This document shows, piece by piece, positions 1,096-42,259 of a stretch of 50,887 nt of DNA. The position numbers and the translations under genes were made by a program. The stretch comes from an uncultured Candidatus Saccharibacteria bacterium (GTDB taxonomy: Bacteria > Patescibacteriota > Minisyncoccia > UBA6257 > GWB1-50-10), in the NCBI GenBank assembly GCA_964525595.1, contig CAZGHF010000002.1, positions 1-50,887 on the forward strand. The letters run 5' to 3'. The stretch's first letter is position 1. Each line of letters opens with the position of its first letter. The notes beneath the pieces were generated by a model that was not told the DNA's origin, did not search any database, and saw only the letters and a list, made by a program, of their open reading frames with translations.

Positions 1096-1098
1096 ATT

Positions 1099-1128
1099 TA
1101 CGTATTTTAATACGTATTTAATTACGTA
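1099..1128. promoter_or_regulatory. Three TACGTA palindromic hexamers at exact 12-bp phasing (1099, 1111, 1123) in the gap before paralog 2
   Basis: Read directly: TTTACGTATTTTAATACGTATTTAATTACGTAATTAAA. The same TACGTA-N6-TACGTA arrangement recurs at 30032/30044. Confidence 0.3.
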
Positions 1129-1136
1129 ATTAAATC

Positions 1137-2909: not shown

Positions 2910-2994
2910 GCATCGGCTCAAGCTCGGTTTTGGGTCGCAAACATATTTGAGTCAAGAAAGAACTTCTTGGTAAGAAGGAATTTTTTCTGATAGA

Positions 2995-4473: not shown

Positions 4474-4477
4474 ATTT

Positions 4478-6199: not shown

Positions 6200-6227
6200 G
6201 TGATTGATAACCAATAACTGGTAACTT

Positions 6228-9583: not shown

Positions 9584-9632
9584 TGAAAAGTAAGCGAAGT
9601 CCCGCCGAAGCTTTAGCGAAGGCGGACGAAGA

Positions 9633-11396: not shown

Positions 11397-11421
11397 TTAA
11401 GTACATCACCCACTTAAGAAC

Positions 11422-13122: not shown

Positions 13123-14876
13123 CAGAAACCAAAACCTGCCAAAACTGTAAACAGTCATTCACGATTGAACCCGAAGATTTCAACTTCTACAAAAAGATTG
13201 ATGTCCCGGCACCGACTTTTTGCTCCGATTGCCGGATGCAAAGGCGGATGCTGTGGCGCAACGAGAGGATTTTGCATAGGAGGAAATCAAGTCTTTCGGG
13301 TAAAGATTTGATTAGTCAATATCCCAAAGAAACTTCTTTCCCGGTCTACGGTGTAAGAGAATTTTATTCCCGCGACTGGGACCCGCCTTCCTTGAAATAT
13401 GATTCAAACCGGAGTTTTCTCGCTCAATTCCAAAGCTTATTATTGAAGACGCCGCGTTGTGCTCTTCTCACGGATATTCAGTCTCTTGATAATGGCAGTA
13501 TTTACCAGAACTCGGCCAGTCGGAACAAAAATTGCTATATGGTCAGCGCTTCGGGAGACAACGAAGATTGCCTTTATAGCAACAACCTCGATTACGCAAA
13601 AAACTCCATTGATTGTCTTTGGTGCCGGAGAGTTGAACATGCTTATGAATGTGTGGATTCAATTGATTGTGCCAGAACTTTCTTTTGTGACGAGTGCAGG
13701 CAATGCGTTGATTCTTGGTTTTTATACAATTGCCGGAACTGTCTTAATTGTTTCGGTTGCGTCGGTCTTCGGAGCAAATCATATTGTCTATGGAATAAAC
13801 AGCTGACTAAAGAAGAATACGAGTCACAGGTCGGAAAAATACTGGAAAGTTTGATTTTAGAACGAGTCCTTGAATTTCAATCAAAGCTCAAAAATATGGC
13901 ACTCGCTTTTCCGAGGAAGTACGCTCATATAGATCCTAAAAGCGCTCCGACTTGCACAGGTGATTACATTATCGATTCTCAGAACGTGTTTCAGGGTTTT
14001 ACGGTTCACGAGAGCCAGAACGTTCGGTATTGTTCCAAGCTCATAGCCGGCAAAGAGTGTCTGGATGTTAACGATTGGGGAGATCCGGCCGAGTTGTGTT
14101 ATGAAAGCATCACCGTCGGTAAGGGCGCCTATAAAGTTTTCTTTTCCTCAAATTGCTGGCCGGAATGCCGAGAGCTTCAGTATTGCGAATCCTGCTCAAG
14201 CTCTCACCACCTCTTTGGCTGCGTGGGATTGAAAAACGCATCGTATTGTATTTTGAACAAACAATATACAGAAGAAGAGTACAATCGGATTGTTCCGGAA
14301 ATAATCGACGAAATGAAGCGGCGCAAGGAATACGGCGAATTCTTCCCGAAAGAATTTTCTCCCTTTCCTTACAACGAAAGCATTGCCCAGGAGAATTTTC
14401 CTTTAACCAGAAAAGAAGCGGTTGAAAAAGGTTTTATCTGGCGGGAGAGCGACAGAAGGGATTATGAGATAACGATGAAAACTATGGATATTTCCCGGAG
14501 TATAAAACAGGTAGATGACTCTATGTTGCGGGAAATTATAGGTTGCGTCCACGGCGGCAAGTGCAATCACGAGTGTGCAACTGCTTTTAAAATTGTATCG
14601 GAGGAACTCAAGTTTTATAGGCGGTTCGGCTTACCCTTACCTCAACTTTGCTTTAATTGCCGGCACGCGGCGAGATTCAACCTGCGGAATCTGCCTAAAG
14701 TTTGGAAAGACTCATGTAAATGCGCCGGTAAAAAATCGGAAAACGGGATTTATCAAAACACCACCGAACACTTCCACGAAGCGGGGAAGTGTCCCAATGA
14801 ATTTGAGACATCATACTCTCCGGACAAAAAAGAAATAGTTTATTGCGGACAATGCTACAACGCTGAAATAATTTAA
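13119..14876 (+). CDS. Cys-rich multi-zinc-ribbon protein, paralog 8 (long C-terminal subtype)
   Basis: The family N-terminus MTETKTCQNCKQSFTIEPEDFNFY begins at the ATG at 13119, which overlaps the paralog 7 stop (ATGA). The 13014 start in the ORF track would add 35 non-homologous residues inside the upstream gene. Confidence 0.8.
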   Translation: MTETKTCQNCKQSFTIEPEDFNFYKKIDVPAPTFCSDCRMQRRMLWRNERILHRRKSSLSGKDLISQYPKETSFPVYGVREFYSRDWDPPSLKYDSNRSFLAQFQSLLLKTPRCALLTDIQSLDNGSIYQNSASRNKNCYMVSASGDNEDCLYSNNLDYAKNSIDCLWCRRVEHAYECVDSIDCARTFFCDECRQCVDSWFLYNCRNCLNCFGCVGLRSKSYCLWNKQLTKEEYESQVGKILESLILERVLEFQSKLKNMALAFPRKYAHIDPKSAPTCTGDYIIDSQNVFQGFTVHESQNVRYCSKLIAGKECLDVNDWGDPAELCYESITVGKGAYKVFFSSNCWPECRELQYCESCSSSHHLFGCVGLKNASYCILNKQYTEEEYNRIVPEIIDEMKRRKEYGEFFPKEFSPFPYNESIAQENFPLTRKEAVEKGFIWRESDRRDYEITMKTMDISRSIKQVDDSMLREIIGCVHGGKCNHECATAFKIVSEELKFYRRFGLPLPQLCFNCRHAARFNLRNLPKVWKDSCKCAGKKSENGIYQNTTEHFHEAGKCPNEFETSYSPDKKEIVYCGQCYNAEII

Positions 14877-27625: not shown

Positions 27626-27776
27626 TAGTTATCAAGAGCGCGGGGAGGGGACTGGCCCAGTGATCCGCCAACAACTTGTCCCGACGCGAGGTCGGGATAA
27701 AGTGCTAAATCCAGCCCTGTTTAGGGAAAGATAAAATTTTATCCTTCTTTCCTTCTTCAGGAAAGATTTTATTTTT
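27626..27776 (+). promoter_or_regulatory. SAM-I (S-box) riboswitch plus expression platform upstream of metK
   Basis: TTATCAAGAG...GGGGAGGGGACTGGCCCAGTGATCC...CCAACAAC...AAAGTGCTAAATCCAGC...AAAGATAA matches the S-box core, with P1 formed by TTATC/GATAA. It is followed by a CTTTCC-N7-GGAAAG hairpin and ATTTTATTTTT just before the ATG. Confidence 0.85.
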
Positions 27777-28832
27777 ATGTTTCACACGCCGAAAATTTAC
27801 ACAGTTGAGTCCGTTACTTCCGGCCATCCGGACAAAGTTTGCGACCAGATTTCTGACGCAATTTTGGATGAGTGTCTGCGGCAGGACCCAACCTCCCGGG
27901 CTGGCATTGAGGCTTTCGGCAGTCACGACCTTTTAGTTGTGGGTGGTGAGGTAACAACCAAAGCAAAAGTGGATTACAAGAGCATCGCCGCCCAGGTTTA
28001 TCGTGACATTGGCTACACCGATGATTTGAAAATCATTGTAAATGTCAGTGAGCAGTCGCCGGATATCGCCCAGGGGGTGGATACCGGCGGGGCCGGTGAC
28101 CAGGGGATTATGTACGGCTACGCTACGGATGAAACGCCGGATTGCTATATGCCAAAGGGAGTGATGCTGGTTCATAAACTGGCCCGGGGTTTGGAAGATT
28201 TGCGCCGGAGCGGCAAGTTCAATTGGTTGGGACCCGACGGCAAAACGCAGGCAACTCTCGATAACGGCAGAATTACCAAGATTTTAGTGAGTACCCAGCA
28301 CGACGACTCAGTTGAGCAGGCCGAAATTCGGGAGGCGCTTATTGAGAACTTGATAAAGCCTTTAGTGGAAGATTTAAACGACGTGGAAATTTTGGTAAAT
28401 CCCACCGGTAAGTTCCTTGTGGGCGGCTTTACGGCCGATACGGGTCTTACCGGCCGGAAAATAATGGTGGATACCTACGGCGGTCTTGCCCCTCATGGCG
28501 GCGGCTGTTTCTCCGGCAAGGACCCGACCAAAGTGGACCGCTCCGCCGCTTACATGTGCCGGTATATCGCCAAAAACGTGGTTGCCAAGGGTCTTGCCAA
28601 AAAGTGCCTTGTTTCCGTCTCTTACGCCATCGGTCGGGCCGAGCCCTTGATGGTTGAGATTCAAAACGAGGAAGGTAAAAGTTTGAGCGGGTTTTTGGAA
28701 GATAATAACTTTGATTTCCGGCCGGCGGCAATAATCGAGCGCTTGGACTTGCGCCGCCCGATATATTTTAAAACAGCCGCTTACGGCCACTTCGGCCGCC
28801 CGGGTTTCTCCTGGGAAGCTGTTCTTAATTAA
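27777..28832 (+). CDS. metK: S-adenosylmethionine synthetase
   Basis: ESVTSGHPDKVCDQISDAILD, GAGDQGIMYGYA and GGGCFSGKDPTKVDRSAAY signatures. Confidence 0.9.
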   Translation: MFHTPKIYTVESVTSGHPDKVCDQISDAILDECLRQDPTSRAGIEAFGSHDLLVVGGEVTTKAKVDYKSIAAQVYRDIGYTDDLKIIVNVSEQSPDIAQGVDTGGAGDQGIMYGYATDETPDCYMPKGVMLVHKLARGLEDLRRSGKFNWLGPDGKTQATLDNGRITKILVSTQHDDSVEQAEIREALIENLIKPLVEDLNDVEILVNPTGKFLVGGFTADTGLTGRKIMVDTYGGLAPHGGGCFSGKDPTKVDRSAAYMCRYIAKNVVAKGLAKKCLVSVSYAIGRAEPLMVEIQNEEGKSLSGFLEDNNFDFRPAAIIERLDLRRPIYFKTAAYGHFGRPGFSWEAVLN

Positions 28833-31240: not shown

Positions 31241-31256
31241 TATGGGGAGGAGAAAA

Positions 31257-31451
31257 ATGACGGAAAAGAATATAAGAAAAATCACCAAAATGGCCGGTGG
31301 CGGAAGTTTTGGTATTACCTTGCCGATTGAGATGGTGCGCAAGTTAAAGTGGAGAGAAAAGCAGAAGGTGGTTGTAAAATTGAGAGGTAAGAAAATCACA
31401 GTGGAGGATTGGCCTGCCTCGCCGAAGCGCAGCACAGGCGGGAAGAAGTAA
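31257..31451 (+). CDS. AbrB/MazE/SpoVT-family DNA-binding protein
   Basis: GGSFGITLPIEMVRKLKWREKQKVVVKLRGKKITVE is a typical swapped-hairpin beta-barrel motif. SD GGGGAGGAG lies before the ATG at 31257. Confidence 0.75.
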   Translation: MTEKNIRKITKMAGGGSFGITLPIEMVRKLKWREKQKVVVKLRGKKITVEDWPASPKRSTGGKK

Positions 31452-31452
31452 T

Positions 31453-32289
31453 ATGGAACAAATAACGATAACGAAAGATTTCTATTTAAAATTAGGCGTT
31501 TCTGCAAACGAGCTTAAGATAGTAAACAAAGGATTAGCCTTGTCAGCTGGACTAAAATTAAGCCCTTTTGCTAGACCCCGTCGGGTTGAAATGTTGCAAG
31601 AAGCAATAAGTTGGCCGAAAGGTAAGAATCAAGAAGATCGCAAAATCACAAAACTATATAAAGCCGGCGGTTTTGAAGTTGTTGTTGGTAAACCTGGCAA
31701 AGAAGCTGCCCCCGATTTTAGAGGAAGACATTATATAACAGGTGAGGTGACGAACAATGCGAACGATATGAATCCTTCAATTTTAAAAAGAGGTAAGAAG
31801 ATTGAAGGTGATTTAACTTTTAGTGATATGTTTGAGAAAATCGAACATCTTATGCATGCCGATGTTTTCGGATTAGAAATTCTTGGTATGTTAATTTTCC
31901 GTATGGCATTTATGTTAGATCATCAAAAAGACAAAAAAGAACACTGGCGATATATTCCTCCAGAGACCTCGCTACGTTCACTCAAAAAACGAATACTTAA
32001 AATCAATGATGTCCCAATAGAGATATTTTTGTATTTCTTGGATGTTTTAGCACTAAACGAGGATGTTAAAATGCATACTCTAGGTTATGAGAATGCACGG
32101 CATGACTACGGACGAATAAATACTCTTCTAACCTTTGTTAATTTAATAGCTGTTCTATTGAATCGGCGTTCTCTCGCTAAATTTGCTGGTGCATTTGCTA
32201 GGCCACCTTCTGGTATGGCGCCCTTGCCTAAAATTAAAGATCTTTTTGATACTTTTCCTCTTTTGTCGCCTAACTTCTTAAAATCTTAA
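31453..32289 (+). CDS. Hypothetical 278-aa protein, translationally coupled to the AbrB-like gene (candidate toxin or restriction component)
   Basis: The start is 1 nt after the AbrB-like stop (TAATATG). The 3' end overlaps the convergent methyltransferase gene by 4 nt. I could not identify a nuclease motif with confidence. Confidence 0.6.
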   Translation: MEQITITKDFYLKLGVSANELKIVNKGLALSAGLKLSPFARPRRVEMLQEAISWPKGKNQEDRKITKLYKAGGFEVVVGKPGKEAAPDFRGRHYITGEVTNNANDMNPSILKRGKKIEGDLTFSDMFEKIEHLMHADVFGLEILGMLIFRMAFMLDHQKDKKEHWRYIPPETSLRSLKKRILKINDVPIEIFLYFLDVLALNEDVKMHTLGYENARHDYGRINTLLTFVNLIAVLLNRRSLAKFAGAFARPPSGMAPLPKIKDLFDTFPLLSPNFLKS

Positions 32290-33737
32290 ATTCGTTTTCG
32301 TCCTCGAATTAGCTTATATTTTGGAGTAATATAACCGTTAGCTAAACGGTCGTTTATTATATTGCAATAATTTTTATCAATTTCAGCTGAGATAAATCGT
32401 CGGTTTAGTTTTTTGCAGACATCTATTTCTGCTCCACTACCTCCAAAAAGAACAAAAACAACGTTTTTAGGTCTTGTCGATGCTTTTATCAGCACTTCAG
32501 TTAGTTTTTGAGGAATTTGACAAGCGTGATAGGTTTTTTCCTTGCTGACATTTTTGACGAGGTTGAATTCGAGCCACGAATACGGCATTCGACCCGCCGA
32601 GCCATTTGCTAAATTCCGTTTAATTCTTCGGTCGTTAGGATTTTTATAAGGAAGAGCAACGGCGTTTTTGAAGAATTTATTTTTTGCATTTTTTCGAACA
32701 TGTAGAATGCTGCGGTGTGCCGTTGTGAATCGTTTTGGTGTATGTCCTACATTGGTGTTATAAACCCAAACATATTCGTTAATATTTGGAAAATGTGAGT
32801 CTAAATATTTAACACGAAGGTGAGCGTTTTGTTGAGGATAATTCATCGTAAAAAAATTGCCGTCTTTTTTAAGTACACGCATTGATTCTCTTGTGAGTTC
32901 TATATACCAATTAATATAATCATCAAATTTCTTCTTGTAATTATTTTCACCATATCTTACGCCAACGTTATAATCCGGGTCACCAAAAATCATATCAATG
33001 CTGTTGTCTGGCAAGTCTCTAAGAACGTTCATCACATCGCCATTATAAACTTTGTTAACGTAGTCTGATATTTTACCTCGTTGTTTTTCACTTTTCTTTG
33101 AAGACAAGACAAAAGTATTAACTGGTTGTTCTGTTTCGTTACTTCTTATTACATCAATTAATATCCCTTGGATTTTAATATCTCTTTCACCTCTCTTTAT
33201 AATTATCGGTTCAAAGTTTTTATTCGCTGACTGCAAGCGGATGTGGCCGCGTTCTTTGTAGAATTTTTTTAAAGTCGCTTCGGAGTTATCAATCAACGCG
33301 ACTACTTTTTGGCCATTCTCAGCGGTTCGTTGGTGTCGGACTAAAATGATGTCGCCGTCTTTTACACCTTCTTCAATCATGCTTTCACCCTCTACTCGCA
33401 GGGCATAGATTTCTGATGAGGGAGGTATTTTATTCTTTGGAACCGCGATGGTTTCGCTTGGAACGTCAAATAAAGTTAGTGGCCGGCCGGCGGCGATTGT
33501 ACCGAGTAAGGGAACTTGAATCATGGGCACTGATTCTACTATTTCAATTCCTCTTTTATGATTTCTATTTAGTTTGATTTGCCCTTTCTTTTCTATCTTT
33601 TGCAGGTGTTCTTGAACAGTCCCTAAAGATTTTAGCCGGAAGTTTTTGGCTATCTCCTCAAAGGTGGGGGAGTAGCTATTTTTTTTGATATAGCTTTTTA
33701 CGAAATCAAAAACCTCTTTTTGTCGGACTGTAAGCAT
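32286..33737 (-). CDS. Fusion protein: full-length LexA (wHTH plus S24 peptidase) joined to a beta-class N6A/N4C DNA methyltransferase
   Basis: LexA part: MLTVRQKEVFDFV...SPTFEEIA, an Ala-Gly site in GTIAAGRP, catalytic Ser in VEGESM and Lys in EATLKKF. MTase part: motif IV FGDPDYNVG, followed much later by motif I VLFGGSGAE (PF01555-like order). The track start, GTG at 33752, is an alternative. Confidence 0.85.
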   Translation of the reverse strand: MLTVRQKEVFDFVKSYIKKNSYSPTFEEIAKNFRLKSLGTVQEHLQKIEKKGQIKLNRNHKRGIEIVESVPMIQVPLLGTIAAGRPLTLFDVPSETIAVPKNKIPPSSEIYALRVEGESMIEEGVKDGDIILVRHQRTAENGQKVVALIDNSEATLKKFYKERGHIRLQSANKNFEPIIIKRGERDIKIQGILIDVIRSNETEQPVNTFVLSSKKSEKQRGKISDYVNKVYNGDVMNVLRDLPDNSIDMIFGDPDYNVGVRYGENNYKKKFDDYINWYIELTRESMRVLKKDGNFFTMNYPQQNAHLRVKYLDSHFPNINEYVWVYNTNVGHTPKRFTTAHRSILHVRKNAKNKFFKNAVALPYKNPNDRRIKRNLANGSAGRMPYSWLEFNLVKNVSKEKTYHACQIPQKLTEVLIKASTRPKNVVFVLFGGSGAEIDVCKKLNRRFISAEIDKNYCNIINDRLANGYITPKYKLIRGRKRI

Positions 33738-33750
33738 TTTATAGTTATCC

Positions 33751-33821
33751 ACAACCTACGGCTTTTCTACGGTATAAATATATTATAATCAAAGATGACC
33801 CGTAGATAAACCGTAGGTTGT
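33751..33821. promoter_or_regulatory. Quasi-palindromic divergent promoter/operator region
   Basis: ACAACCTACGG (33751-33761) faces CCGTAGGTTGT (33811-33821). CTACGG occurs at 33756 and 33767. CCGTAG occurs at 33800 and 33811. Spacing within each pair is 11 bp. TATAAATATATTATAAT sits in the centre. Confidence 0.6.
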
Positions 33822-33861
33822 CCACAGGGTAAAGGTCGTAGAAGTAATTAAATTCAATAAA

Positions 33862-34083
33862 ATGGCTATTTCTGAAGAGACTAAAAAAGCTTTACGTAAG
33901 CGTGCCGGTGGTAGATGCGAATGTACTATGCTTGTCTGTGATCATCGTGGTAGAAGATGTCAGCGTGGCCTTTCTACTGAATATTGGGATGCCCATCGTC
34001 GTGATGCTGGTGGCCTTTATATTCTAAGTAACCTTATCGCTATGTGCGCAACCTGTCACAAGAATACTCGTACTTACGGTTGA
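33862..34083 (+). CDS. Mini HNH endonuclease-domain protein (73 aa)
   Basis: CECTMLVCDH...DAHRRDAGG...SNLIAMCATCH fits the zinc-bound HNH (C..C...H...N...C..CH) pattern. Confidence 0.75.
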   Translation: MAISEETKKALRKRAGGRCECTMLVCDHRGRRCQRGLSTEYWDAHRRDAGGLYILSNLIAMCATCHKNTRTYG

Positions 34084-34103
34084 TGAGGTAAAATAAAGGT
34101 ACC

Positions 34104-34125
34104 AACCCGCCGCGGGGTGGAGGAG
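34104..34125. repeat. GC-rich intergenic motif, a-type (AACCCGCCGCGGGGTGGAGGAG)
   Basis: Differs by 1 nt from the copy at 36486-36507. Confidence 0.8.
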
Positions 34126-34188
34126 TAAGTCTGATCACGGATTTGTTAAAAATGAGCCTCGTTTTGGTGTTTTTGTTAGAATAAACTT

Positions 34189-35823
34189 ATGCCCGAAGAT
34201 CCTGTACATAGGAATCTTAAAAATAAGCTGAAAGAAGTTTTGGACAGATGCGGCTTTATTAATGACCGGGAATTGTCGTTTAACTTTGACGGCGCGACTG
34301 ATCAAGATGGTAAGTTGATTGAAAATACTAGTATAGATGTAGCTTCATTAATTAATTACAATGCACGAAAGTGCTTAATTTTGTTTGAGGTAAAGAAGAG
34401 TAGACCTAGTCAAATCACCAGGATTTTCTCGGCTTGGCAAAGTCATATCAGTGATATTAAGAAAGGGAATTTTGCAGTCTTAAACTCAGACGATAAAAGG
34501 ATAAGAAAAGCCGACTTAGGGAACTTAGACTATATTGTATTTTGTTTAGTCGTTGGAGAAAAAAACGTTCCAAGGTCTAGCAGGAAGAATTTTTATTCGT
34601 GGAGTATAGACGCGTTGAAATATTACGATAAAGTATCGTCAGTCCTGGGGGAATGGACTAGGTATGAAATTTTCAAAGATTTTGATTTGTTTTTAGAATC
34701 TAGTGGCACTTACACGGAGGACGCTTTAAAAATTAGTCAGGGCAATAATAAGTTATATATATTTGGAATGCATCCAGATGCTTTGTTGAAGATATGTTAT
34801 GTGTCTCGTAGGTCTTCTACTAAGAGTTTGGCGTATCAGAGGCTACTGAGCAAGAACAGGGTTAGAGAGATACACGACTATTTACTAAACTCGAACGTTC
34901 TATTACCCAACGCAATTATTTTAGCGTTCGATAACACTTCCACAATCAAGTTTGACCACACTAATAAAAAAATAGACTTGCCCAAGGTTTATTGTTCTGC
35001 CTGGATAGTTGATGGACAGCATCGCGTTTTTGGTTTCTTGAAGAATAAAAAGTATTACGGTGTACCAGAGAACCAATATAAGTATTTCCAATTACCGGTG
35101 ATAGCTTTTAAAGATGCTGACGAAAAAACGCAGAGTAAAGTTTTTATTGATATCAACTATTACCAAAAGAAAATTGATCCATCTTTATTATGTGATTTAT
35201 CAACGGTTATAAAGAATCTCAAGAGCGAATTAACGTGGGCGAGTTTATTAGTCAAAGAACTTAATAGTAGGAGTGACGTTTTGCAAGATAGAATAAAGGT
35301 GTCTGAGTTAGATAGTAGAGGAAAAAAGATTTCATTATCCAGCGCTGTTAAATATGGGTTGTTAGAATCGCTGTTGGGCTACAATAAGAAAACTAAAAGA
35401 TACGATGGTGCCCTGTACAAATATGCGCCTTTTAATGTTAACGCTAAGTTTGAAAACGAGAATAATCAGAGAATGTTCGAAAAACAATGCAAGTTGTTAG
35501 ATAGATTTTTTAAGGCAATCTACCTGAACACTAAACCTCGTAGATCTACACCAAAGGATCCTTGGGAAAATGTAAGGCACTATTCTTTACTGAAGCCAAC
35601 TGGTGTCAATGCGTTATATCTAGTTCTAAACAGAATTTTAGAAAAATATCCCAGCGCCGGACTCAATTTGGATACATATTTACAACCTATTAATAAGGAT
35701 ATGTTTGAAAGAAAAAAAGTCGCAAAATACGGTGGGGGATGGAAGGGTTTTCGTGGCTTGGCAGATAAGATGTTGGAAGTAATCAATCGGAAAAATAACG
35801 ATAGTCTGAGATTATATAGTTAA
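34189..35823 (+). CDS. DGQHR-domain protein (DndB/ParB-like)
   Basis: Exact WIVDGQHRVFGF motif, with the downstream FIDINYYQKKI segment typical of DndB-like proteins. Confidence 0.75.
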   Translation: MPEDPVHRNLKNKLKEVLDRCGFINDRELSFNFDGATDQDGKLIENTSIDVASLINYNARKCLILFEVKKSRPSQITRIFSAWQSHISDIKKGNFAVLNSDDKRIRKADLGNLDYIVFCLVVGEKNVPRSSRKNFYSWSIDALKYYDKVSSVLGEWTRYEIFKDFDLFLESSGTYTEDALKISQGNNKLYIFGMHPDALLKICYVSRRSSTKSLAYQRLLSKNRVREIHDYLLNSNVLLPNAIILAFDNTSTIKFDHTNKKIDLPKVYCSAWIVDGQHRVFGFLKNKKYYGVPENQYKYFQLPVIAFKDADEKTQSKVFIDINYYQKKIDPSLLCDLSTVIKNLKSELTWASLLVKELNSRSDVLQDRIKVSELDSRGKKISLSSAVKYGLLESLLGYNKKTKRYDGALYKYAPFNVNAKFENENNQRMFEKQCKLLDRFFKAIYLNTKPRRSTPKDPWENVRHYSLLKPTGVNALYLVLNRILEKYPSAGLNLDTYLQPINKDMFERKKVAKYGGGWKGFRGLADKMLEVINRKNNDSLRLYS

Positions 35824-35847
35824 AGTAATAGAAAAAACTGGAAACTA

Positions 35848-35875
35848 ACCCATCGCGCCCCGGAGGAGGTGGAGA
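35848..35875. repeat. GC-rich intergenic motif, a-type variant (AACCCATCGCGCCCCGGAGGAGGTGGAG)
   Basis: Shares the AACCC lead and the GGTGGAG core. Confidence 0.6.
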
Positions 35876-35889
35876 TTTATAAAAATTAA

Positions 35890-36435
35890 ATGTCTGTGAA
35901 AATTACTTATTTTGTGCATGGTACTACGACGGATAATGAAAAGGGAATCTCGTCGGGGTGGCATGATGTTGAACTTTCTGAATTGGGCGTAAAGCAATCA
36001 ATAGAGCTTAGAGGTAAGATAAAGGACAAGAAATTTGACGTTGTGTTTTGCTCTGATTTAAAAAGAGCGGTTGATTCTGCGAAACTGGCTTTTGAAGGAG
36101 TGGCGCCGATTGCGGCGGATAAAAGATTGCGGGAATGCAATTATGGAAAATATAATGCGCAGCCATCAGGTGTTGTTGAGCCGATGCAGGAGAAACGCAC
36201 AACGGAAAGGTTTCCGGAAGGGGAGAGTTATGAAGACGTAAAAGCGCGAATGGCTGATTTCTTGAAGTTTTTGAAAGAAAATTATGACGGGAAAAGCATT
36301 GTGATAGTGGCGCATAAAGCACCCCAGCTTTCGCTTGATGTGCTTTTAAGAGGTAAAACGTGGGAAGAGGCATTCGCGGAGGACTGGAGAAAAACAAAAT
36401 CATGGCAACCCGGATGGGAATATGAGTTGAAATAG
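35890..36435 (+). CDS. Histidine-phosphatase (phosphoglycerate-mutase) superfamily protein, atypical VHG motif
   Basis: ITYFVHGTTTDN (RHG to VHG), SDLKRAVDSA, ECNYG, PEGESYEDV and VIVAHKAP follow the superfamily order. Confidence 0.65.
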   Translation: MSVKITYFVHGTTTDNEKGISSGWHDVELSELGVKQSIELRGKIKDKKFDVVFCSDLKRAVDSAKLAFEGVAPIAADKRLRECNYGKYNAQPSGVVEPMQEKRTTERFPEGESYEDVKARMADFLKFLKENYDGKSIVIVAHKAPQLSLDVLLRGKTWEEAFAEDWRKTKSWQPGWEYELK

Positions 36436-36485
36436 TGGTTTATAAGGAGGTTAAGATTGTTAAAGAGTAGGTATATAATTTAAAT

Positions 36486-36507
36486 AACCCACCGCGGGGT
36501 GGAGGAG
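36486..36507. repeat. GC-rich intergenic motif, a-type (AACCCACCGCGGGGTGGAGGAG)
   Basis: Near-identical to 34104-34125. Confidence 0.8.
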
Positions 36508-36580
36508 AAAAAAGAGGTCGAAAATGATATAACTTAAAAATTAGTTACATCTTTCGAAGGAAATTGGTAATATTAAAAAT

Positions 36581-38221
36581 ATGGCTGACGTCCTGACCCC
36601 GACGCAACGTTCCTATAACATGTCGATGATCCGGTCGCGGAATACCGGTCCCGAGGCTTTACTTGCGGAGATGCTTATCCGGAATGGTTTTTGTGTCTAT
36701 GAATTCAGTCCGGGGGATATTCCGGGGAAACCTGATTTTTACTTTCGCAAGCAAAAAGTAGCTGTGTTTGTCGACGGCTGTTTCTGGCATCGATGCAAGC
36801 GATGTTTCAAGGCTCCTGAAACCAACACTGAATTTTGGAACAGGAAAATAACTGCGAACATTGCAAGAGACCGGAAAACCAACCGTATTTTGAGCAGGGA
36901 AAACATCCGGGTAGTCAGGATCAAGGAACACGAACTAAAAAAGGATCAGAAAAAGGTTTTACAGAAACTCAAAGCTGTTTTAGTAGAGACCCGCCAGCTC
37001 AAAACACTCGATTTATTTGCAGGCGCTGGGGGTTTCTCGGAAGGTTTTATACATGCCGGATGTGATATGGTCGCACACGTCGAAATGGATAAAGATGCGT
37101 GTAATACCATTCGCACAAGAATGATCTATCATGCACTTAAGAAAAAAGGGTTGATACGCGAATACAAAAAGTATCTGCTCAGCCGAATAAGTATCGCCGA
37201 ACTTGTGGCAAAATACGGTTTGCAAAAAGAATATGACTCAGTCATTCAGGCAAGGATTGACAAGGGTAACTATGCGGAACTTATAAATCAAGTGAGGGAA
37301 CGTCTCGGAAATCATGACCTCGATATAATAATCGGCGGTCCCCCTTGTCAGGCCTACTCGCATATCGGTCGCTCATCAGATAAAAAGCGGATGAGGAGAG
37401 ATAAACGAAAGTTCCTGTACGAATATTATATTGAGTTTTTAAAAGCATTTCGACCGAAGGTGTTTGTGTTTGAAAATGTGCCGGGACTCCTGAGTGCGGG
37501 CGGGGGTATTTATCTGAGTAAAATGCGGAAACTTATGCGTGAAGCCGGATATCGCACAGACTATCAGGTATTGAATGCAGCTGACTTCGGTGTACCTCAA
37601 GACAGGAAACGGATTATTCTGATCGGCTGGAATAAAAAATCAGGTATTGATAAATACCCCAATTTTGAGTCGGTAAACAGAAGTTATACGGCCGAGGATT
37701 TCCTGAAAGATCTTCCGGTACTGAAAAGCGGCGACGGGGAGAGCGCTCTTGAATTTAAAAGCAGGTCATCTCTTTTACACAGACTCGGAATTATTCAGCA
37801 GAATATACCTGTCCTACTTGGTCATGTTGCTCGTCCTCACACTAAACAGGACCTGGAAATATACCGGCTGGCAGTAAAACATAAAAATAAAGGCAAAAAT
37901 ATCAAATACAATGAACTACCGGAACGATTAAAGACACATAAAAATCAGACCGGCTTCCTTGACCGCTTCAAGGTGGTTGATGCTACTGCGGTAACGAGTC
38001 ATACTGTCATCGCCCATATTTCGAAGGACGGTCATTATTATATTCACCCAGATATCAGACAGAATAGATCATTAACGCCACGTGAGGCAGCCCGTCTCCA
38101 GACGTTTCCTGACAATTTTAAGTTTGAGGGTAGTAGAACCTCCCAGTTTAGACAAATCGGGAACGCCGTGCCCCCTATGCTTTCCAAAATAATCGCCAAA
38201 ACGATACTTAACTTCACATAA
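36581..38221 (+). CDS. Fusion protein: Vsr very-short-patch-repair endonuclease joined to a C5-cytosine DNA methyltransferase
   Basis: Vsr part: LTPTQRSYNMSMIRSRNTGPE...GKPDFYF...VFVDGCFWHRC. Dcm part: motif I LDLFAGAGGFSEGF, motif IV GGPPCQAYS, motif VI ENVPGL, motif VIII PQDRKRIILIG, and motifs IX/X TPREAARLQTFPDNF...QIGNAVPP. Confidence 0.9.
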   Translation: MADVLTPTQRSYNMSMIRSRNTGPEALLAEMLIRNGFCVYEFSPGDIPGKPDFYFRKQKVAVFVDGCFWHRCKRCFKAPETNTEFWNRKITANIARDRKTNRILSRENIRVVRIKEHELKKDQKKVLQKLKAVLVETRQLKTLDLFAGAGGFSEGFIHAGCDMVAHVEMDKDACNTIRTRMIYHALKKKGLIREYKKYLLSRISIAELVAKYGLQKEYDSVIQARIDKGNYAELINQVRERLGNHDLDIIIGGPPCQAYSHIGRSSDKKRMRRDKRKFLYEYYIEFLKAFRPKVFVFENVPGLLSAGGGIYLSKMRKLMREAGYRTDYQVLNAADFGVPQDRKRIILIGWNKKSGIDKYPNFESVNRSYTAEDFLKDLPVLKSGDGESALEFKSRSSLLHRLGIIQQNIPVLLGHVARPHTKQDLEIYRLAVKHKNKGKNIKYNELPERLKTHKNQTGFLDRFKVVDATAVTSHTVIAHISKDGHYYIHPDIRQNRSLTPREAARLQTFPDNFKFEGSRTSQFRQIGNAVPPMLSKIIAKTILNFT

Positions 38222-38222
38222 T

Positions 38223-40418
38223 ATGGCTCGAGAAAAAAATAAAACAGGTGTTTTTAAAATCAAACCGGCAGCCAGACATATATTGACTATCGGTCGTGAC
38301 TTGATAAAAGATAACGCAACCGCTCTTTTAGAGCTGGTTAAAAACAGTTATGACGCCGATGCAACGCAGGTGACCATTGAATTTTCTTCCGTAAAAAGTA
38401 GGCGGGGGGCGGGTATAAAGATTAGCGTGCAGGATAATGGTCTTGGCATGAATTATCAGACAGTGACTACAGTGTGGATGGTTCCATCAACTCTCTACAA
38501 ACAACAGAAGGAGTTTTTGAGCGAAATAAAACAGCGTCCGTTACAAGGAAGGAAAGGTATCGGAAGATATGCCGCTTCTATTTTAGGAGATGAGCTTCAT
38601 CTTAAAACAACTCAAGAAAGAGAAGTAACTACTCTTTCGATATATTGGAAAGATTTTGAAGAAAAAGAATATCTTGATGATATTGAAATCTCAATTAACA
38701 GGGGAAAAACAAGTGACCCCGCCGGTACATGTATTGAAATTATCGGTAGTACTGACAAATTAAGAGAGTGGGATAAGCCTCAAATCGAGAGCTTTATAAA
38801 AGAATTGCGGCGCCTTATTTCTCCTATACACGAAAAGGATATAAAAACCGATTTTGAAATAAAACTCCTTTTTAAAGATTTTCCGGTTGATGCATATAAG
38901 AACGAAACAATAACCATCGAACCATTTCCAATTCTGGAGGTATTCGATTATCGCATATCGGGAGAAGTATCAGGGACCGGTGAAGCAAATCTTGTATTTG
39001 AAAATGGGACCGCCGGAACTGTTAGTGAAAAGTTTAAAATTCACATTCTCCTTGATGACGGAGCAAAATACTGCGGTAAGTTAAGCGTGGATTTTAAAAT
39101 ATATGACAAGGACGCTGACTCTATAGAGAATCTTATAGAAAAAATTGGAGACCGGACGAATGGTTCTAAATCTGGCGAAAAACTCAGTAAGAATGAAGCA
39201 AGAAGCCTCCTAAAACAAATTTGTGGTATTGCTGTTTATCGGGGTGGCTTTCGCATCCGTCCGCACGGAGATCCGGGATATGATTGGCTCCAACTTGACC
39301 GCCGGCGCGTTCAAAAACCAGGAGTGCGCGTAGGCAGTGACCGAGTAAGCGGATTCATTGAAATAGAACCCGAGGAAAGATCTTGTCTGGAAGAGAAAGC
39401 AAGTCGTGACGGCTTAAAAGAAAATAAGTACTTCCTTGGTCTTACTCAGATTGCCACCCGTATCCTTCTTGAGGCGGAAAATAAGCGTTATCAATTTAAG
39501 CTGAAAACAGGTCAGGAAAACTCACAGCGTAATCTTATTAGGAAACTCGAGAATCTCTTTGATTTTTCAGATGTTACCCAGAGTATAGAAAAAAAACTCG
39601 CGGATCATGAGATGCCGAAATCGGAGCGTAAAAAGATTGTCGGTTTAATTGATGCGCGTGTCGAGGAAAGTAACAAGGTTGTTGAAGATGTAAAACGCAT
39701 CATTGCCATCTATCAAGGACAAGCTACACTCGGAAAGATTGTCAGGGTAGTCCTACACGAAGGCAGGAATCCCTTAAGCTATTTTCAGAATCAAATACCC
39801 GTCATTAAAAAGTGGGTTGATGAGTTAAAAACGGAATTTAATAAAAATCTTCTAAATCAACTCGTTGACCGCCTCGACGCTATTAAACGACAGGCTGAGT
39901 TGCTAATTAATCTTTTTAGAAAAATCAGTCCCCTGGCCGCCCAACGCAAGGCAAACCCCGCTACTTTTTATTTGAAGAAAAACCTGGAGGAGATCATCGA
40001 TATTTTCTCGCAAGAATTCAAAGAGAAAAAGATCAAAATTAGACTGGATTGTGATCCTGATATACAAGTTACTGCGTGGCCTGAAGATATAAGCCAGACA
40101 ATAGTAAATCTCCTTGACAACAGTTTGTACTGGCTTGCACAGAATAAAAATAGCGCCAGGAAAGTTACAATAACCGGAACGATTATGGGTGACACGTTTC
40201 AGTTGACTTACAAAGACAATGGCCCAGGAATTGAAAAAAAGTTTATACGGGATGAACTCATATTTGAGCCGGGATTTACAACAAAACCTGATGGAACTGG
40301 TCTCGGGTTGGCAATTGCGGGAGAGGCTATGGAAAGGAGCGGGGGTAAGTTGACCGCTGTTTATTCAGAATCTGGTGCACATTTTGAGATAGATTTTCCT
40401 TTACAATCAAAAAAGTAA
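38223..40418 (+). CDS. Cytoplasmic MORC/Hsp90-like GHKL ATPase domain fused to a histidine-kinase core (HisKA plus HATPase_c)
   Basis: N-terminal part: LLELVKNSYDADATQVTIEF...VQDNGLGM...GRKGIGRYAASILG. C-terminal part: H-box VLHEGRNPLSYF, N-box VNLLDNSLYW, G1 DNGPGI, G2 GTGLGLAIAGE. No TM segment. The start is 1 nt after the Vsr-Dcm stop. Confidence 0.8.
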   Translation: MAREKNKTGVFKIKPAARHILTIGRDLIKDNATALLELVKNSYDADATQVTIEFSSVKSRRGAGIKISVQDNGLGMNYQTVTTVWMVPSTLYKQQKEFLSEIKQRPLQGRKGIGRYAASILGDELHLKTTQEREVTTLSIYWKDFEEKEYLDDIEISINRGKTSDPAGTCIEIIGSTDKLREWDKPQIESFIKELRRLISPIHEKDIKTDFEIKLLFKDFPVDAYKNETITIEPFPILEVFDYRISGEVSGTGEANLVFENGTAGTVSEKFKIHILLDDGAKYCGKLSVDFKIYDKDADSIENLIEKIGDRTNGSKSGEKLSKNEARSLLKQICGIAVYRGGFRIRPHGDPGYDWLQLDRRRVQKPGVRVGSDRVSGFIEIEPEERSCLEEKASRDGLKENKYFLGLTQIATRILLEAENKRYQFKLKTGQENSQRNLIRKLENLFDFSDVTQSIEKKLADHEMPKSERKKIVGLIDARVEESNKVVEDVKRIIAIYQGQATLGKIVRVVLHEGRNPLSYFQNQIPVIKKWVDELKTEFNKNLLNQLVDRLDAIKRQAELLINLFRKISPLAAQRKANPATFYLKKNLEEIIDIFSQEFKEKKIKIRLDCDPDIQVTAWPEDISQTIVNLLDNSLYWLAQNKNSARKVTITGTIMGDTFQLTYKDNGPGIEKKFIRDELIFEPGFTTKPDGTGLGLAIAGEAMERSGGKLTAVYSESGAHFEIDFPLQSKK

Positions 40419-40431
40419 AGAATTCAATTAT

Positions 40432-41544
40432 ATGAAACTTATAATTGTTGAGGACGATAAAGATCAAATCATTTCCTATCTGGATACAATCACAGTCGTA
40501 AATTCATCTGGTGGTGGTCATAATATAGAAAACCCTAAGGTAGTGGGAACTTTAACAGAAGCACTCGAGGCGATAGAAAACAAGCACTTTGACGGAGCAA
40601 TAGTCGATCTGAAACTTTCTCGTAGTAACCGAGACAAGACCGACGGAAACGAAATCATCGGGCAGATTGTAAATTTAAAAAGGTTTCCTGTTTTTGTTTA
40701 CTCATCTTTTCTTGAAGATATTGACCCCGCCATAGAGAATTCTTTTTTCTTTCAGCAATTTGAAAGGACTACTGTCCCGTTTCGGGATGTTGTAATAAAA
40801 CTTCATGATATTTATAAAACCGGAGTAACAAAAATTCTTGGTCGAGACGGTGCCATAGAAAGCCATCTGACTAAAATCTTCTGGAAGCATGTGGCTGAGT
40901 CATTTGAGGGTTTATGTCAAAAAGGGATTACCGAGAAGCAACTCCTTCGATATATTACTGGGCATTTATATGAATATCTTGAACTCGATGATATGGCTGA
41001 GTCATTTAAAAAATATTTACCGGAAGAGGTTTATATTAAACCCTCTATAAAACTTAATTTTTTTACGGGGGGTATCATTAAAGACAAAAACTCCCAGAGA
41101 AACTTTATAATTCTCACACCATCCTGCGACATCGTCCAAAACAAAGCTAAAAGTATGCTTCTGGCGTCTGTCCGTAGCCTTACAGATGATCCTGTACGCG
41201 ATCTCAAAACCAAATCTACAAACAGAATTCCTGCTGATCTTCGGGGAGCACAGAGGCAAGTTGCGGAGGAAGAAAAAAAGACGGCTAAAAAACAGCTTGA
41301 AGATTTAATACGAAATAATTATTCTCACAAATATTATTTCCTGCCCAGAAGCAAGAATTTCGAGGGAGGTTTAATTAATTTCCAGGATTTGGAATCCGTA
41401 GAACCAGCCGCAATGAACGGGAGATTTGATATTATTGCAACTATAAATAATCAATTTCTGAAAGACATCGTCGCAAAGTTTTCGTTTTATTATTCCCGTC
41501 AGGGCGCACCGGAAGTCGACTTTTCTGTTGCTGATCTCCCGTAG
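40432..41544 (+). CDS. Receiver (REC)-domain protein with an uncharacterised C-terminal domain of about 250 aa
   Basis: MKLIIVEDDKDQI..., phospho-acceptor context FDGAIVDLKL, and VFVYSS. The remaining 250 aa have no motif I recognise. The start is 13 nt after the kinase gene. Confidence 0.7.
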   Translation: MKLIIVEDDKDQIISYLDTITVVNSSGGGHNIENPKVVGTLTEALEAIENKHFDGAIVDLKLSRSNRDKTDGNEIIGQIVNLKRFPVFVYSSFLEDIDPAIENSFFFQQFERTTVPFRDVVIKLHDIYKTGVTKILGRDGAIESHLTKIFWKHVAESFEGLCQKGITEKQLLRYITGHLYEYLELDDMAESFKKYLPEEVYIKPSIKLNFFTGGIIKDKNSQRNFIILTPSCDIVQNKAKSMLLASVRSLTDDPVRDLKTKSTNRIPADLRGAQRQVAEEEKKTAKKQLEDLIRNNYSHKYYFLPRSKNFEGGLINFQDLESVEPAAMNGRFDIIATINNQFLKDIVAKFSFYYSRQGAPEVDFSVADLP

Positions 41545-41604
41545 ATATGACGAGCACACAAATCCAAAAAAATTAGGATAAATCCCACATCCTCCACCGG
41601 TATA

Positions 41605-41838
41605 ATGAAAAGAGATAAAAATTGCGGTTTATGTAAAGAGGGACATAATTTTGATGACCACTTAGTAATGCTTGCGATGGGACACCTGTTGATTGAGCAC
41701 CATCCTAAAAATGGATTTACGGAAGACGAAATATTTGAAAAGTGTAATGCGCTCTCAGCGAATGTTGCACATGAAAATATTCACAGCAACATCGAGCTGA
41801 TTTCCGCGCAATTCAATGAATTAGGAGTAGAAAAATAA
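41605..41838 (+). CDS. Hypothetical 77-aa Cys/His-containing protein
   Basis: ORF bounded by copies of the GC-rich intergenic motif. CGLCKEGH...H..H residues. Confidence 0.45.
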   Translation: MKRDKNCGLCKEGHNFDDHLVMLAMGHLLIEHHPKNGFTEDEIFEKCNALSANVAHENIHSNIELISAQFNELGVEK

Positions 41839-41858
41839 CCCTCCACCGGCGGGGCGGG
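41837..41858. repeat. GC-rich intergenic motif, b-type (AACCCTCCACCGGCGGGGCGGG)
   Basis: The CCTCCACC core is the inverse of the a-type GGTGGAGG core. It overlaps the upstream stop codon. A degenerate copy lies at 41584-41602. Confidence 0.75.
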
Positions 41859-41869
41859 AAATTAGATTC

Positions 41870-42259
41870 ATGGAATACAAAGGCGTAATAATTGAGGAAA
41901 GCTTGGAGAATAAAGACGTTTTGGGTAACGTGAAAATTTTGAGTACTAAAATCGAGCCAGTGACGGAAAACCACAAAACGCCTTGGATAAAGCAATGGAC
42001 GCTTCATACGGTTGAGGTTTCGAAAAGTGATGCCGAAGAAATTGCCGAAAAAATAAGCAAATCGCTGGATAGTGAGCATAACTGGTACGCCGATTTTAAA
42101 AACGAAGAAACTCATTTCATTATCTTTCGCGGCAGAGTTTTTAAGGTGAACAGGACTAAAAAAGAGGAATACGACACCGCGACAAAATACGGCCTTACTC
42201 TCGGCATCCCAGATTACCAACTTGACTTCTCGTCGCATATCAAGAAGTGGGAAAGATAA
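41870..42259 (+). CDS. Hypothetical 129-aa protein
   Basis: ORF bounded by copies of the GC-rich motif. Its upstream AAATTAGATTCATGG resembles AAATAGATTAATGG upstream of the next gene. Confidence 0.5.
   Translation: MEYKGVIIEESLENKDVLGNVKILSTKIEPVTENHKTPWIKQWTLHTVEVSKSDAEEIAEKISKSLDSEHNWYADFKNEETHFIIFRGRVFKVNRTKKEEYDTATKYGLTLGIPDYQLDFSSHIKKWER

Follow-up and report, generated by a model that had tools for sequence, protein, structure and literature searches.

The closest described relatives of the system considered here are the modules reported by Bellieny-Rabelo, Pretorius and Moleleki in 2021 (PMC8011034), in which proteins combining HATPase_c_3, DHp and HATPase_c domains ("HEF_HK") were linked to receiver-like "Response_reg_2" proteins (91.6%; 644 regions). 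C5-methylases were found upstream, Vsr was frequent, and a paraMORC origin was proposed; that study (PMC8011034) was computational, included no experiment and left the C-terminal domain of the partner protein uncharacterised. The present analysis concerns a three-gene locus of this kind in an uncultured Candidatus Saccharibacteria bacterium (contig CAZGHF010000002.1), of which the whole stretch analysed, 50,887 nucleotides in length, is referred to below as the window. Three forward-strand open reading frames (ORFs), 36581-38221 (gene 1, 546 amino acids, aa), 38223-40418 (gene 2, 731 aa) and 40432-41544 (gene 3, 370 aa), encode a Vsr–C5 cytosine methyltransferase fusion, a GHKL ATPase–histidine kinase and a receiver-effector protein. 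With a probability of roughly 0.5, this trio is a restriction-modification-like module for discriminating self from non-self, its restriction nuclease being replaced by a His-Asp phosphorelay.

The wider background is provided by the prokaryotic MORC and paraMORC GHKL ATPases of restriction-modification systems, which are associated with cytosine methylases and Vsr (Iyer, Abhiman and Aravind 2008; PMC2292703). The C-terminal outputs of paraMORC proteins differ by family and include a RecB-like nuclease, TIR and DUF4263 (PMC2292703, PMC12137116), and in VcSduA, a validated Shedu protein, the nuclease is under the control of a paraMORC3-type GHKL domain (PMC12137116). A version with a kinase or a receiver is absent from both papers; in PMC2292703 the word "receiver" is never used, and "histidine kinase" is found solely where the name GHKL is spelled out. 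The N-terminal domain of gene 2 resembles these proteins in its MORC/MutL-type GHKL domain with intact ATP motifs and in its restriction-modification context. Whereas paraMORC proteins and the GHKL-Shedu protein VcSduA carry fused nucleases, gene 2 carries a histidine-kinase transmitter and the effector is located on a separate receiver protein.

With the HEF_HK/Response_reg_2 modules the trio has in common a soluble HATPase_c_3 + DHp + HATPase_c protein, an adjoining receiver-like gene, and a C5-methyltransferase and Vsr nearby. The original prediction, made from the sequence without database searches, held that no described system places a MORC-type sensor on a histidine kinase beside a Dcm; this claim has to be given up, since PMC8011034 had already reported such pairs. 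The difference is that the DHp and receiver domains of the window clade are nearer to canonical HisKA and Response_reg. Pfam HEF_HK (PF19191) gave no match at E<=1 for gene 2 or the scanned relatives, and Response_reg_2 (PF19192), whose presence in the Pfam copy used is unconfirmed, gave none at E<=1 in the window protein, 60 relatives and further relatives. These scans covered approximately 80 relatives, including Enterobacter, Campylobacter, Bacillus, Haemophilus, Streptococcus and archaeal homologues, and the precomputed annotations of approximately 360 listed relatives contain neither family. The PF19191 model does work in the library, where it produces a weak match on a distant Agrobacterium kinase. 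Because the defining Pfam models were applied and do not match, the window clade is not filed in the HEF_HK/Response_reg_2 families; its architecture is already published, and it is the same kind of system in a clade outside both models. The observation in PMC8011034 that Vsr lies downstream of the partner in Flavobacteriia fits two loci of the survey described below (L017, L018). A blastn comparison of the Enterobacter pair with complete E. coli genomes gave no match.

The first line of evidence for the proposed module is gene order. The survey comprised 80 loci, with one genome taken per species and the domains of the window mapped by tblastn, from Bacteroidota, Spirochaetota, Acidobacteriota, Nitrospirales, Poribacteria, Anaerolineales, Desulfobacula, Kiritimatiellota, Gastranaerophilales, Firmicutes, Pasteurellaceae and one Woesearchaeota bin. 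The GHKL-kinase gene lies directly 5' of the receiver gene at 74 of 75 evaluable loci, the exception being a kinase split by an insertion, and this adjacency is the sole support for a cognate kinase-receiver pairing. A C5-methyltransferase is found within 1 kb of the pair at 66 of 69 evaluable loci (59 upstream of the kinase, 7 downstream of the receiver gene), and a clear gene 1 orthologue (tblastn E<1e-90) stands beside it at 58 of the 69. The functional link between methyltransferase, kinase and receiver put forward in the original prediction is borne out by these counts, as the pair does not normally occur without a methyltransferase. Vsr is present within 5 kb at 27 of the 69 loci, and at four loci an HhH-GPD glycosylase follows the trio in place of Vsr; the company of either enzyme is as expected for an active 5-methylcytosine methyltransferase. 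When 503 flanking ORFs were clustered, the largest cluster covered six loci and no further conserved gene, such as a hidden nuclease or an antitoxin, was found in the 80 loci, so that the kinase/receiver pair is the only constant companion of the methyltransferase. The conserved unit is a C5-methyltransferase, a GHKL-kinase and a receiver-effector, with or without Vsr, and not a chance neighbourhood.

The strongest indication that the kinase reads the target site of the methyltransferase is seen in the sequences of variant loci, where an EcoRII N-terminal domain (PF09217) is fused to the kinase and the catalytic domain is lost. Three kinases carry EcoRII-N ahead of the GHKL domain, downstream of Vsr, a helix-turn-helix (HTH) gene and Dcm. 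In EcoRII itself, binding of the CCWGG site is the task of EcoRII-N. The Prolixibacter locus (L005) has the order Vsr / HTH / Dcm / stand-alone EcoRII-C / EcoRII-N–GHKL–kinase / receiver-effector, and the other two (L095 and a JGI contig) retain this order without any EcoRII-C. Since EcoRII-N sits on the kinase and the EcoRII nuclease is missing at two of the three loci, the kinase and the receiver protein appear to stand in for the nuclease arm. The earlier idea that the GHKL-kinase reads DNA likewise gains support from these fusions. Compared with EcoRII and classical type II systems, the Dcm-type methyltransferase with Vsr is shared, as are EcoRII-N and C-protein-like HTH genes in relatives; the difference is that the window and most loci lack the PD-(D/E)xK catalytic domain, with the kinase/receiver pair in the place of the nuclease. 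As in a type II system, a methyltransferase is supplied by gene 1. No cognate restriction endonuclease accompanies it: no nuclease domain was detected by Pfam, PADLOC or NCBIfam in genes 2 and 3 or in the neighbouring ORFs 35890-36435, 41605-41838 and 41870-42259, and nucleases of the HaeIII or NgoPII type are confined to a few loci of Firmicutes/Pasteurellaceae.

At the level of the individual genes, the description given in the original prediction proved accurate in all checked details. The three genes are indeed co-directional, arranged as a single operon with gaps of 1 and 13 nucleotides, as demonstrated by the ORF coordinates and by the junctions (TAA-T-ATG between genes 1 and 2; TAA, 13 nucleotides and ATG between genes 2 and 3). 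For gene 2, all of the quoted motifs (LLELVKNSYDADA, VQDNGLGM, GRKGIGRY, VLHEGRNPL) are present, and the two Bergerat folds are recovered as HATPase_c_3 and HATPase_c (Table 1). The predicted absence of a transmembrane segment also holds, no hydrophobic stretch able to form a membrane helix being found in the protein (maximum Kyte-Doolittle mean over 19 aa, 1.24). Among 40 relatives, the N-terminal Bergerat motifs are invariant (E37/N41/D44/D46, D71-G73-G75, G109-K111-G112-G114), and so are the kinase boxes (H512/E513, N629/N633, D665-G667-G669, G691-G693-G695). Gene 2 has more than 3600 relatives. Its N-terminus matches the BbrUII/HgiDII restriction-enzyme family NF050001 (6e-17) and PADLOC REase_II PDLC03419; the NF050001 match amounts to 61 bits over the N-terminal 124 profile positions only and does not reach the curated full-length cut-off of 550 bits. 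Weak PDB sequence matches of this ATPase were obtained to HtpG, MORC2 and MutL.

Regarding the C-terminal part of gene 2, residues 498-728 align to solved histidine-kinase DHp+CA cores, including ThkA 3a0r (E 3e-15), ZraS and FixL; the PDB kinase entries aligned over this range include 3a0r, 9jfj and 4gcz. The NCBIfam AtoS/ZraS-type alignment covers residues 500-730 (5e-29). Pfam HisKA reaches only 0.045. The protein possesses both the H-box histidine and a CA domain with N, G1 and G2 boxes that are characteristic of two-component kinases. The region between the two ATPase folds has no Pfam or PDB sequence match and is a candidate transducer and DNA-contact module; its invariant residues include G335, R340, F343, R344, R346, P347, D354, W355, R362, E384, E391 and R395.

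Gene 3 had been described as a receiver followed by about 250 aa free of any recognised motif, and both parts of this description stand. The motifs IIVEDD and AIVDLKL occur in its translation. Pfam Response_reg is sub-threshold (E 0.057); the N-terminal domain is nevertheless assigned as a receiver because of its AlphaFold2 fold, its fold matches and its conserved residues. The full-length model has a predicted local distance difference test (pLDDT) score of 91.8, the N-terminal domain adopts a (beta-alpha)5 fold, and the PDB fold matches listed are receiver domains only. Among 75 relatives, E7/D8 are conserved, D59 and T/S91 are found in 75/75 and K/R112 in 73/75, with Arg in the window protein; the acidic pair, phospho-acceptor Asp, Thr/Ser and Lys position of a receiver are accordingly all in place. 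A word-indexed search returned at least 151 full-length relatives of gene 3, and no homologue was found in phage genomes.

The C-terminal 240 aa of gene 3 have no match in Pfam, NCBIfam, PADLOC or PHROG, and no PDB sequence-profile match even at E<=10. The fold search with full-length gene 3 gave only receiver domains. Residues 131-370 were also modelled on their own with 20 aligned relatives (pLDDT 88.7). All 50 PDB matches of this model listed by Foldseek are MazF-type toxins (best E 4.7e-4; template-modelling score normalised to the target, 0.58-0.73), and the best matches in a viral structure library are PemK-like proteins. This outcome agrees with the expectation that the output is no ordinary DNA-binding regulator domain. 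The domain comprises a helical subdomain (~131-190), a MazF/PemK-like beta-barrel into which two helices are inserted (~205-355) and, at the C-terminus, an invariant YYSRQGxP tail; its predicted order beta-beta-helix-beta-[insert]-beta-beta-beta-helix can be laid one to one onto the MazF topology. The beta-barrel and C-terminal helix are thus those of MazF/PemK/Kid toxins, whereas the two-helix insert and the helical N-terminal subdomain are additions. Furthermore, MazF/PemK/Kid toxins are paired with an antitoxin, while the barrel of gene 3 is fused to a receiver and has its own invariant set, E199, C232, D233, R356 and Q357. Across the family alignment E199, P230, C232, R356, Q357, G358 and P360 are invariant, and R173, Y201, D233, K344, D345, Y353 and Y354 nearly so. 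As modelled, the domain is a MazF-fold effector, MazF chemistry not being implied, and a toxic activity directed at nucleic acid is the most economical guess. The domain is represented by 1505 clusters at 50% identity, 326 of them with E<=1e-30; among the best 150 of these 1505 representatives, truncated fragments aside, every full-length protein carries it behind ~130 N-terminal aa, which corresponds in length to a receiver.

The prediction that gene 1 is a Vsr-Dcm fusion is confirmed by the Pfam Vsr and DNA_methylase matches and by TIGR00632 and TIGR00675. The top PADLOC model is DrmMII PDLC02649 (5e-166). Vsr is encoded separately at L001, L005 and L095; the close relative L006 has it fused. 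The gene 1 region, including the target-recognition domain, is conserved with methyltransferases standing beside HaeIII-type and NgoPII-type nucleases. Both of these nuclease families cut GGCC. As the methyltransferase adjacent to the GGCC nucleases is a gene 1 orthologue with a conserved target-recognition region, GGCC is a reasonable guess, by sequence comparison, for the target site of the window methyltransferase.

Table 1. Domains and sites of the three-gene locus, with positions in the window.
Feature	Position	Strand	Evidence or remark
Promoter-like site TTAAGA-17-TATAAT	36451..36479	+	5' of gene 1; consensus scan, 10/12 matches
Gene 1, Vsr (very-short-patch repair endonuclease) domain, aa 1-130	36581..36970	+	Pfam PF03852, aa 2-71, E 9.6e-23; TIGR00632, E 1e-33
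Gene 1, C5 cytosine DNA methyltransferase domain, aa 136-546	36986..38221	+	Pfam PF00145 DNA_methylase, E 3.5e-65; TIGR00675 dcm
Gene 2, N-terminal MORC/Hsp90/MutL-type GHKL ATPase, aa 1-170	38223..38732	+	PF13589 HATPase_c_3, aa 33-149, E 4.8e-20
Gene 2, middle region, aa 171-490, conserved, without family match	38733..39692	+	Alignment of relatives
Gene 2, histidine-kinase core (DHp + CA)	39714..40418	+	HATPase_c, aa 621-728, E 1.9e-20; H512 codon 39756-39758
Gene 3, receiver (REC) domain, aa 1-130	40432..40821	+	AlphaFold2 fold and conserved residues; phospho-acceptor D59 codon 40606-40608
Gene 3, C-terminal effector domain, aa 131-370	40822..41544	+	Predicted structure and Foldseek

In the proposed mechanism, the Vsr-Dcm fusion would methylate a short cytosine-containing site in the host, possibly GGCC, and its Vsr part would mend the T:G mismatches left by deamination of 5-methylcytosine. 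The soluble gene 2 protein would engage DNA through its MORC/MutL-type GHKL ATPase and middle region and report unmethylated sites. This engagement would switch the C-terminal kinase core, with autophosphorylation of H512 and passage of the phosphoryl group to D59 of the gene 3 receiver. Phosphorylation would then release, or dephosphorylation unmask, the C-terminal MazF-fold domain, a toxic effector whose action would most likely be directed at RNA or another nucleic acid. The expected outcome would be growth arrest or abortive infection upon entry of unmethylated foreign DNA or upon loss of the methyltransferase. A more specific version must be regarded as tentative and somewhat doubtful, namely that a MORC-type DNA clamp reads whether a short site is methylated and that His-Asp transfer opens a receiver-gated MazF-fold toxin with an active site of its own, formed by the invariant Glu, Cys-Asp and Arg-Gln residues. 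The recognition module could be exchangeable, a GGCC-type methyltransferase being served by the middle domain of the kinase itself and a CCWGG-type one by EcoRII-N.

As immune signalling, such a cascade has an analogue in Detocs, which reportedly consists of a kinase DtcA, a buffer receiver DtcB and a receiver-effector DtcC, usually a nucleoside phosphorylase (PNP). The likeness lies in the route from a kinase to a receiver-gated effector and is one of analogy, not of relationship: Detocs has a TPR sensor, a nucleoside phosphorylase effector and no methyltransferase linkage, in contrast to the GHKL ATPase sensor found here. Identity with Detocs was rejected, since the trio and its neighbours contain a single receiver gene and no PNP domain, and PADLOC detected no homology to Detocs. 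DISARM was rejected as well, because PADLOC detected no Drm model other than the methyltransferase's DrmMII among ten island genes (31453-42259), DrmA, DrmB, DrmC and DrmE being absent; MADS, an eight-gene system with an N6-methyltransferase, was set aside as unrelated. In concept, a parallel is offered by PrrC-EcoprrI, in which a latent RNase toxin is tied to a restriction-modification system and PrrC is restrained by protein-protein contact with the type I enzyme. Both would couple a nucleic-acid-targeting toxin to restriction-modification as a second line of defence; there is neither homology nor a phosphorelay in PrrC-EcoprrI.

Several observations weigh against the proposed module. Apparently intact pairs without a nearby methyltransferase exist at three loci (Rufibacter L008, Poribacteria L069 and the Enterobacter mori plasmid L088), and they are hard to reconcile with a toxin triggered by unmethylated host DNA. 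A HaeIII-type nuclease lies 5' of the kinase in a Firmicutes/Pasteurellaceae subclade beside relaxases, intact at three loci and decayed at two, and an NgoPII-type nuclease lies upstream in one Clostridium bin. As some loci carry a complete classical nuclease, the pair could be accessory to restriction and not its replacement. Regarding the effector, no Pfam PemK match was obtained in gene 3 or its relatives, and a profile comparison with four MazF/Kid sequences, a weak test with a shallow profile, was non-significant (hhalign E 0.47). The column equivalent to the catalytic Arg29 of MazF is variable in the family alignment, and neither the catalytic Arg nor the Thr position of MazF is kept. 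Because the likeness to MazF is confined to the fold and the Arg29 equivalent varies, the effector may not be an RNase, and the conservation of a Cys-Asp pair and an RQG tail would suggest a different effector chemistry. A nuclease may also be hidden in the middle region of gene 2. Finally, full-text literature searches found no experimental paper on the module or any of its members, and no PADLOC model of a histidine-kinase or receiver defence system matched the ten island genes.

Some of the same observations bear on a true restriction system, in which the C-terminal domain of gene 3 or the middle region of gene 2 would be a novel DNase and the phosphorelay would license the cleavage of unmethylated DNA, leaving the host unharmed. 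The gene logic is that of type II restriction-modification with no other candidate nuclease conserved, the GHKL N-terminus is common to the BbrUII/HgiDII restriction enzymes, EcoRII-N-fused kinases occur without EcoRII-C, and the effector domain has the conserved acidic residues E199, D233 and D345. This reading is nonetheless unlikely, as searches with Pfam, NCBIfam, PADLOC and Foldseek recognised no nuclease family or fold in either gene 2 or gene 3, the folds matched belong to toxins of the RNA-cleaving or gyrase-poison type and not to DNases, and classical nucleases coexist with the pair at some loci.

That coexistence, together with the C-protein-like HTH genes at some loci and the pairs free of a methyltransferase, speaks for the pair being a regulatory two-component system, as proposed by the authors of PMC8011034, which would sense a cytoplasmic cue (for example nucleotide pool, DNA damage or methylation state) and tune how the methyltransferase, Vsr or a linked restriction enzyme is expressed or how active it is. 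It is an improbable explanation of the present locus: no known type of DNA-binding output domain is present in the receiver protein, most loci, the window among them, offer no nuclease for the pair to regulate, an effector role is suggested where the pair stands in for EcoRII-C, and the output domain of the partner varies among relatives. Least probable as a separate explanation is addiction by post-segregational killing, in which loss of the element would dilute the methyltransferase, unmethylated chromosomal sites would appear and the relay would kill the cell, stabilising a mobile element; the frequent location on conjugative plasmids and beside relaxases or recombinases, a mechanism identical to that of the proposed module and the comparable behaviour of restriction-modification systems (Kobayashi 2001, as cited in PMC8011034) speak for it, while the window trio is chromosomal, amid housekeeping genes and inside a defence-type island, and addiction is compatible with defence and no exclusive alternative.

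The variation of the output is apparent in distant relatives. On a Hymenobacter volaticus plasmid (L092, 3565-8699), an N6-methylase is followed by a GHKL-kinase, a 227-aa receiver-like protein and a metallo-beta-lactamase (MBL)-fold hydrolase; on an Agrobacterium plasmid (L091, 4524-10733), the GHKL-kinase with the weak HEF_HK match is followed by a 636-aa receiver-like protein and a 614-aa protein without an assigned family. The sensor kinase has seemingly been put to use with more than one output, and a varying output is typical of defence systems. The pair was found on 45 plasmids, 41 of which are conjugative Campylobacter plasmids, and at some loci its neighbours include a relaxase, a recombinase, TraG, AbiJ, AIPR, DISARM-like genes, MzaB, Drt2 and type I S subunits. 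Directly 3' of the trio, six loci (L016, L020, L032, L040, L060, L073) carry a 493-aa GHKL protein and an ATPase-like protein of ~920 aa; this conserved pair is read as a second GHKL-based system stacked beside the trio. PADLOC MzaB is matched by four flanking ORFs (best 6e-123), probably the GHKL proteins of this downstream pair.

Signs of decay are seen in the mobile Firmicutes/Pasteurellaceae subclade. At L076 (7232-7565) and L084 (7684-7796) the HaeIII-type nuclease is left only as fragments, while the kinase, receiver protein and methyltransferase remain. In Streptococcus cristatus (L079, 2542-9729) the N-terminal part of the kinase lies ~5 kb from the rest of the gene, which makes an insertion likely.

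In the window, the trio forms the right end of a low-GC stretch at ~30-42 kb (GC 0.35-0.43, against 0.43-0.55 around it) that breaks up a series of housekeeping genes: aminoacyl-tRNA synthetases, PBP2 and metK lie upstream, and a RarA-like AAA+ ATPase gene (MgsA_C domain) and a UPF0182 gene downstream. Besides the trio, the stretch contains a LexA–N4/N6-methyltransferase fusion, a small HNH-like ORF, a DGQHR/DndB/DpdB-like gene and a histidine-phosphatase-superfamily gene; it is a DNA-modification and defence-type island, located on a chromosome that was assembled from a metagenome. The promoter-like site 5' of gene 1 is weak evidence only, because the promoter and terminator scan of the region gave counts no higher than expected from shuffles. 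Directly 5' of the trio, 35890-36435 (+) is a His_Phos_1 gene of the superfamily that includes the phosphohistidine phosphatase SixA; it is probably incidental, since it has no counterpart in the conserved flanking clusters of the 80 related loci. The small ORFs 3' of the trio (41605-41838, 41870-42259) have no counterpart among those clusters either.

The remaining island genes have features of their own. The 488-aa ORF at 32286-33752 (-) is a single fusion of a complete LexA, with DNA-binding domain and S24 autopeptidase (TIGR00498 1e-54), to an N4/N6 DNA methyltransferase (PF01555 3e-36; PADLOC MTase_II 6e-121), and an SOS-cleavable methyltransferase of this kind is unusual. It is overlapped tail to tail by 4 nucleotides by a 278-aa ORF (31453-32289), which could be its nuclease partner. 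The 278-aa ORF is preceded by a 69-aa ORF (31242-31451) that, judged by eye, is presumably AbrB/SpoVT-like. At 34189-35823 (+), the DGQHR/DndB/DpdB-like protein (TIGR03187 5e-45; PADLOC DpdB 4e-27) is solitary, with no other dnd or dpd genes, and adjoins a Cys-rich 73-aa ORF at 33862-34083 (+) with a weak HNH match (E 0.004).

Outside the island, 16-14876 (+) holds a tandem array of eight Cys-rich paralogues (one of 359 aa, seven of 557-620 aa; ~30-42% pairwise identity) without a Pfam match; its first ORF begins near the window edge, and an ORF at 2995-4473 within the array is dissimilar to the rest. A SAM riboswitch at 27626-27737 (+) (RF00162, 57 bits) precedes metK (27777-28832) in an ordinary arrangement. 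Palindrome counts, which come from ~50 kb and are too few to be decisive on site avoidance, identify GATC as the most depleted 4-nucleotide palindrome of the whole window (68 observed, 163 expected, ratio 0.42), a hint of restriction pressure on GATC that has nothing to do with the C5-methyltransferase. GGCC is mildly depleted too (observed/expected 0.66), which is no more than suggestive of avoidance, and the ratios of GATC and CTAG (0.46) are lower.

Relative to the earlier descriptions, the new elements are the linkage statistics of the clade, the replacement of the EcoRII catalytic domain, the GGCC-nuclease neighbours, and the predicted MazF-like fold of the effector with its invariant residues. 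If the more specific version given above is true, a restriction-modification system with a signalling cascade as its restriction arm would represent an immune logic not yet demonstrated in bacteria; no histidine kinase would have been shown before it to sense DNA methylation, and no MazF-fold effector to be under receiver control. It would also make available for study a histidine kinase that is soluble, senses DNA and has a defined ligand. PADLOC-DB v2.0.0 contains no matching model for the kinase or the receiver protein; given this and the size of the family, a validated function would lead to the re-annotation of thousands of "sensor histidine kinase / hypothetical protein" pairs. The family is large, extends over many phyla and is carried on conjugative plasmids of pathogens such as Campylobacter, and its study would be informative about the reading of epigenetic marks by MORC-type ATPases, which is of interest for eukaryotic MORCs as well.

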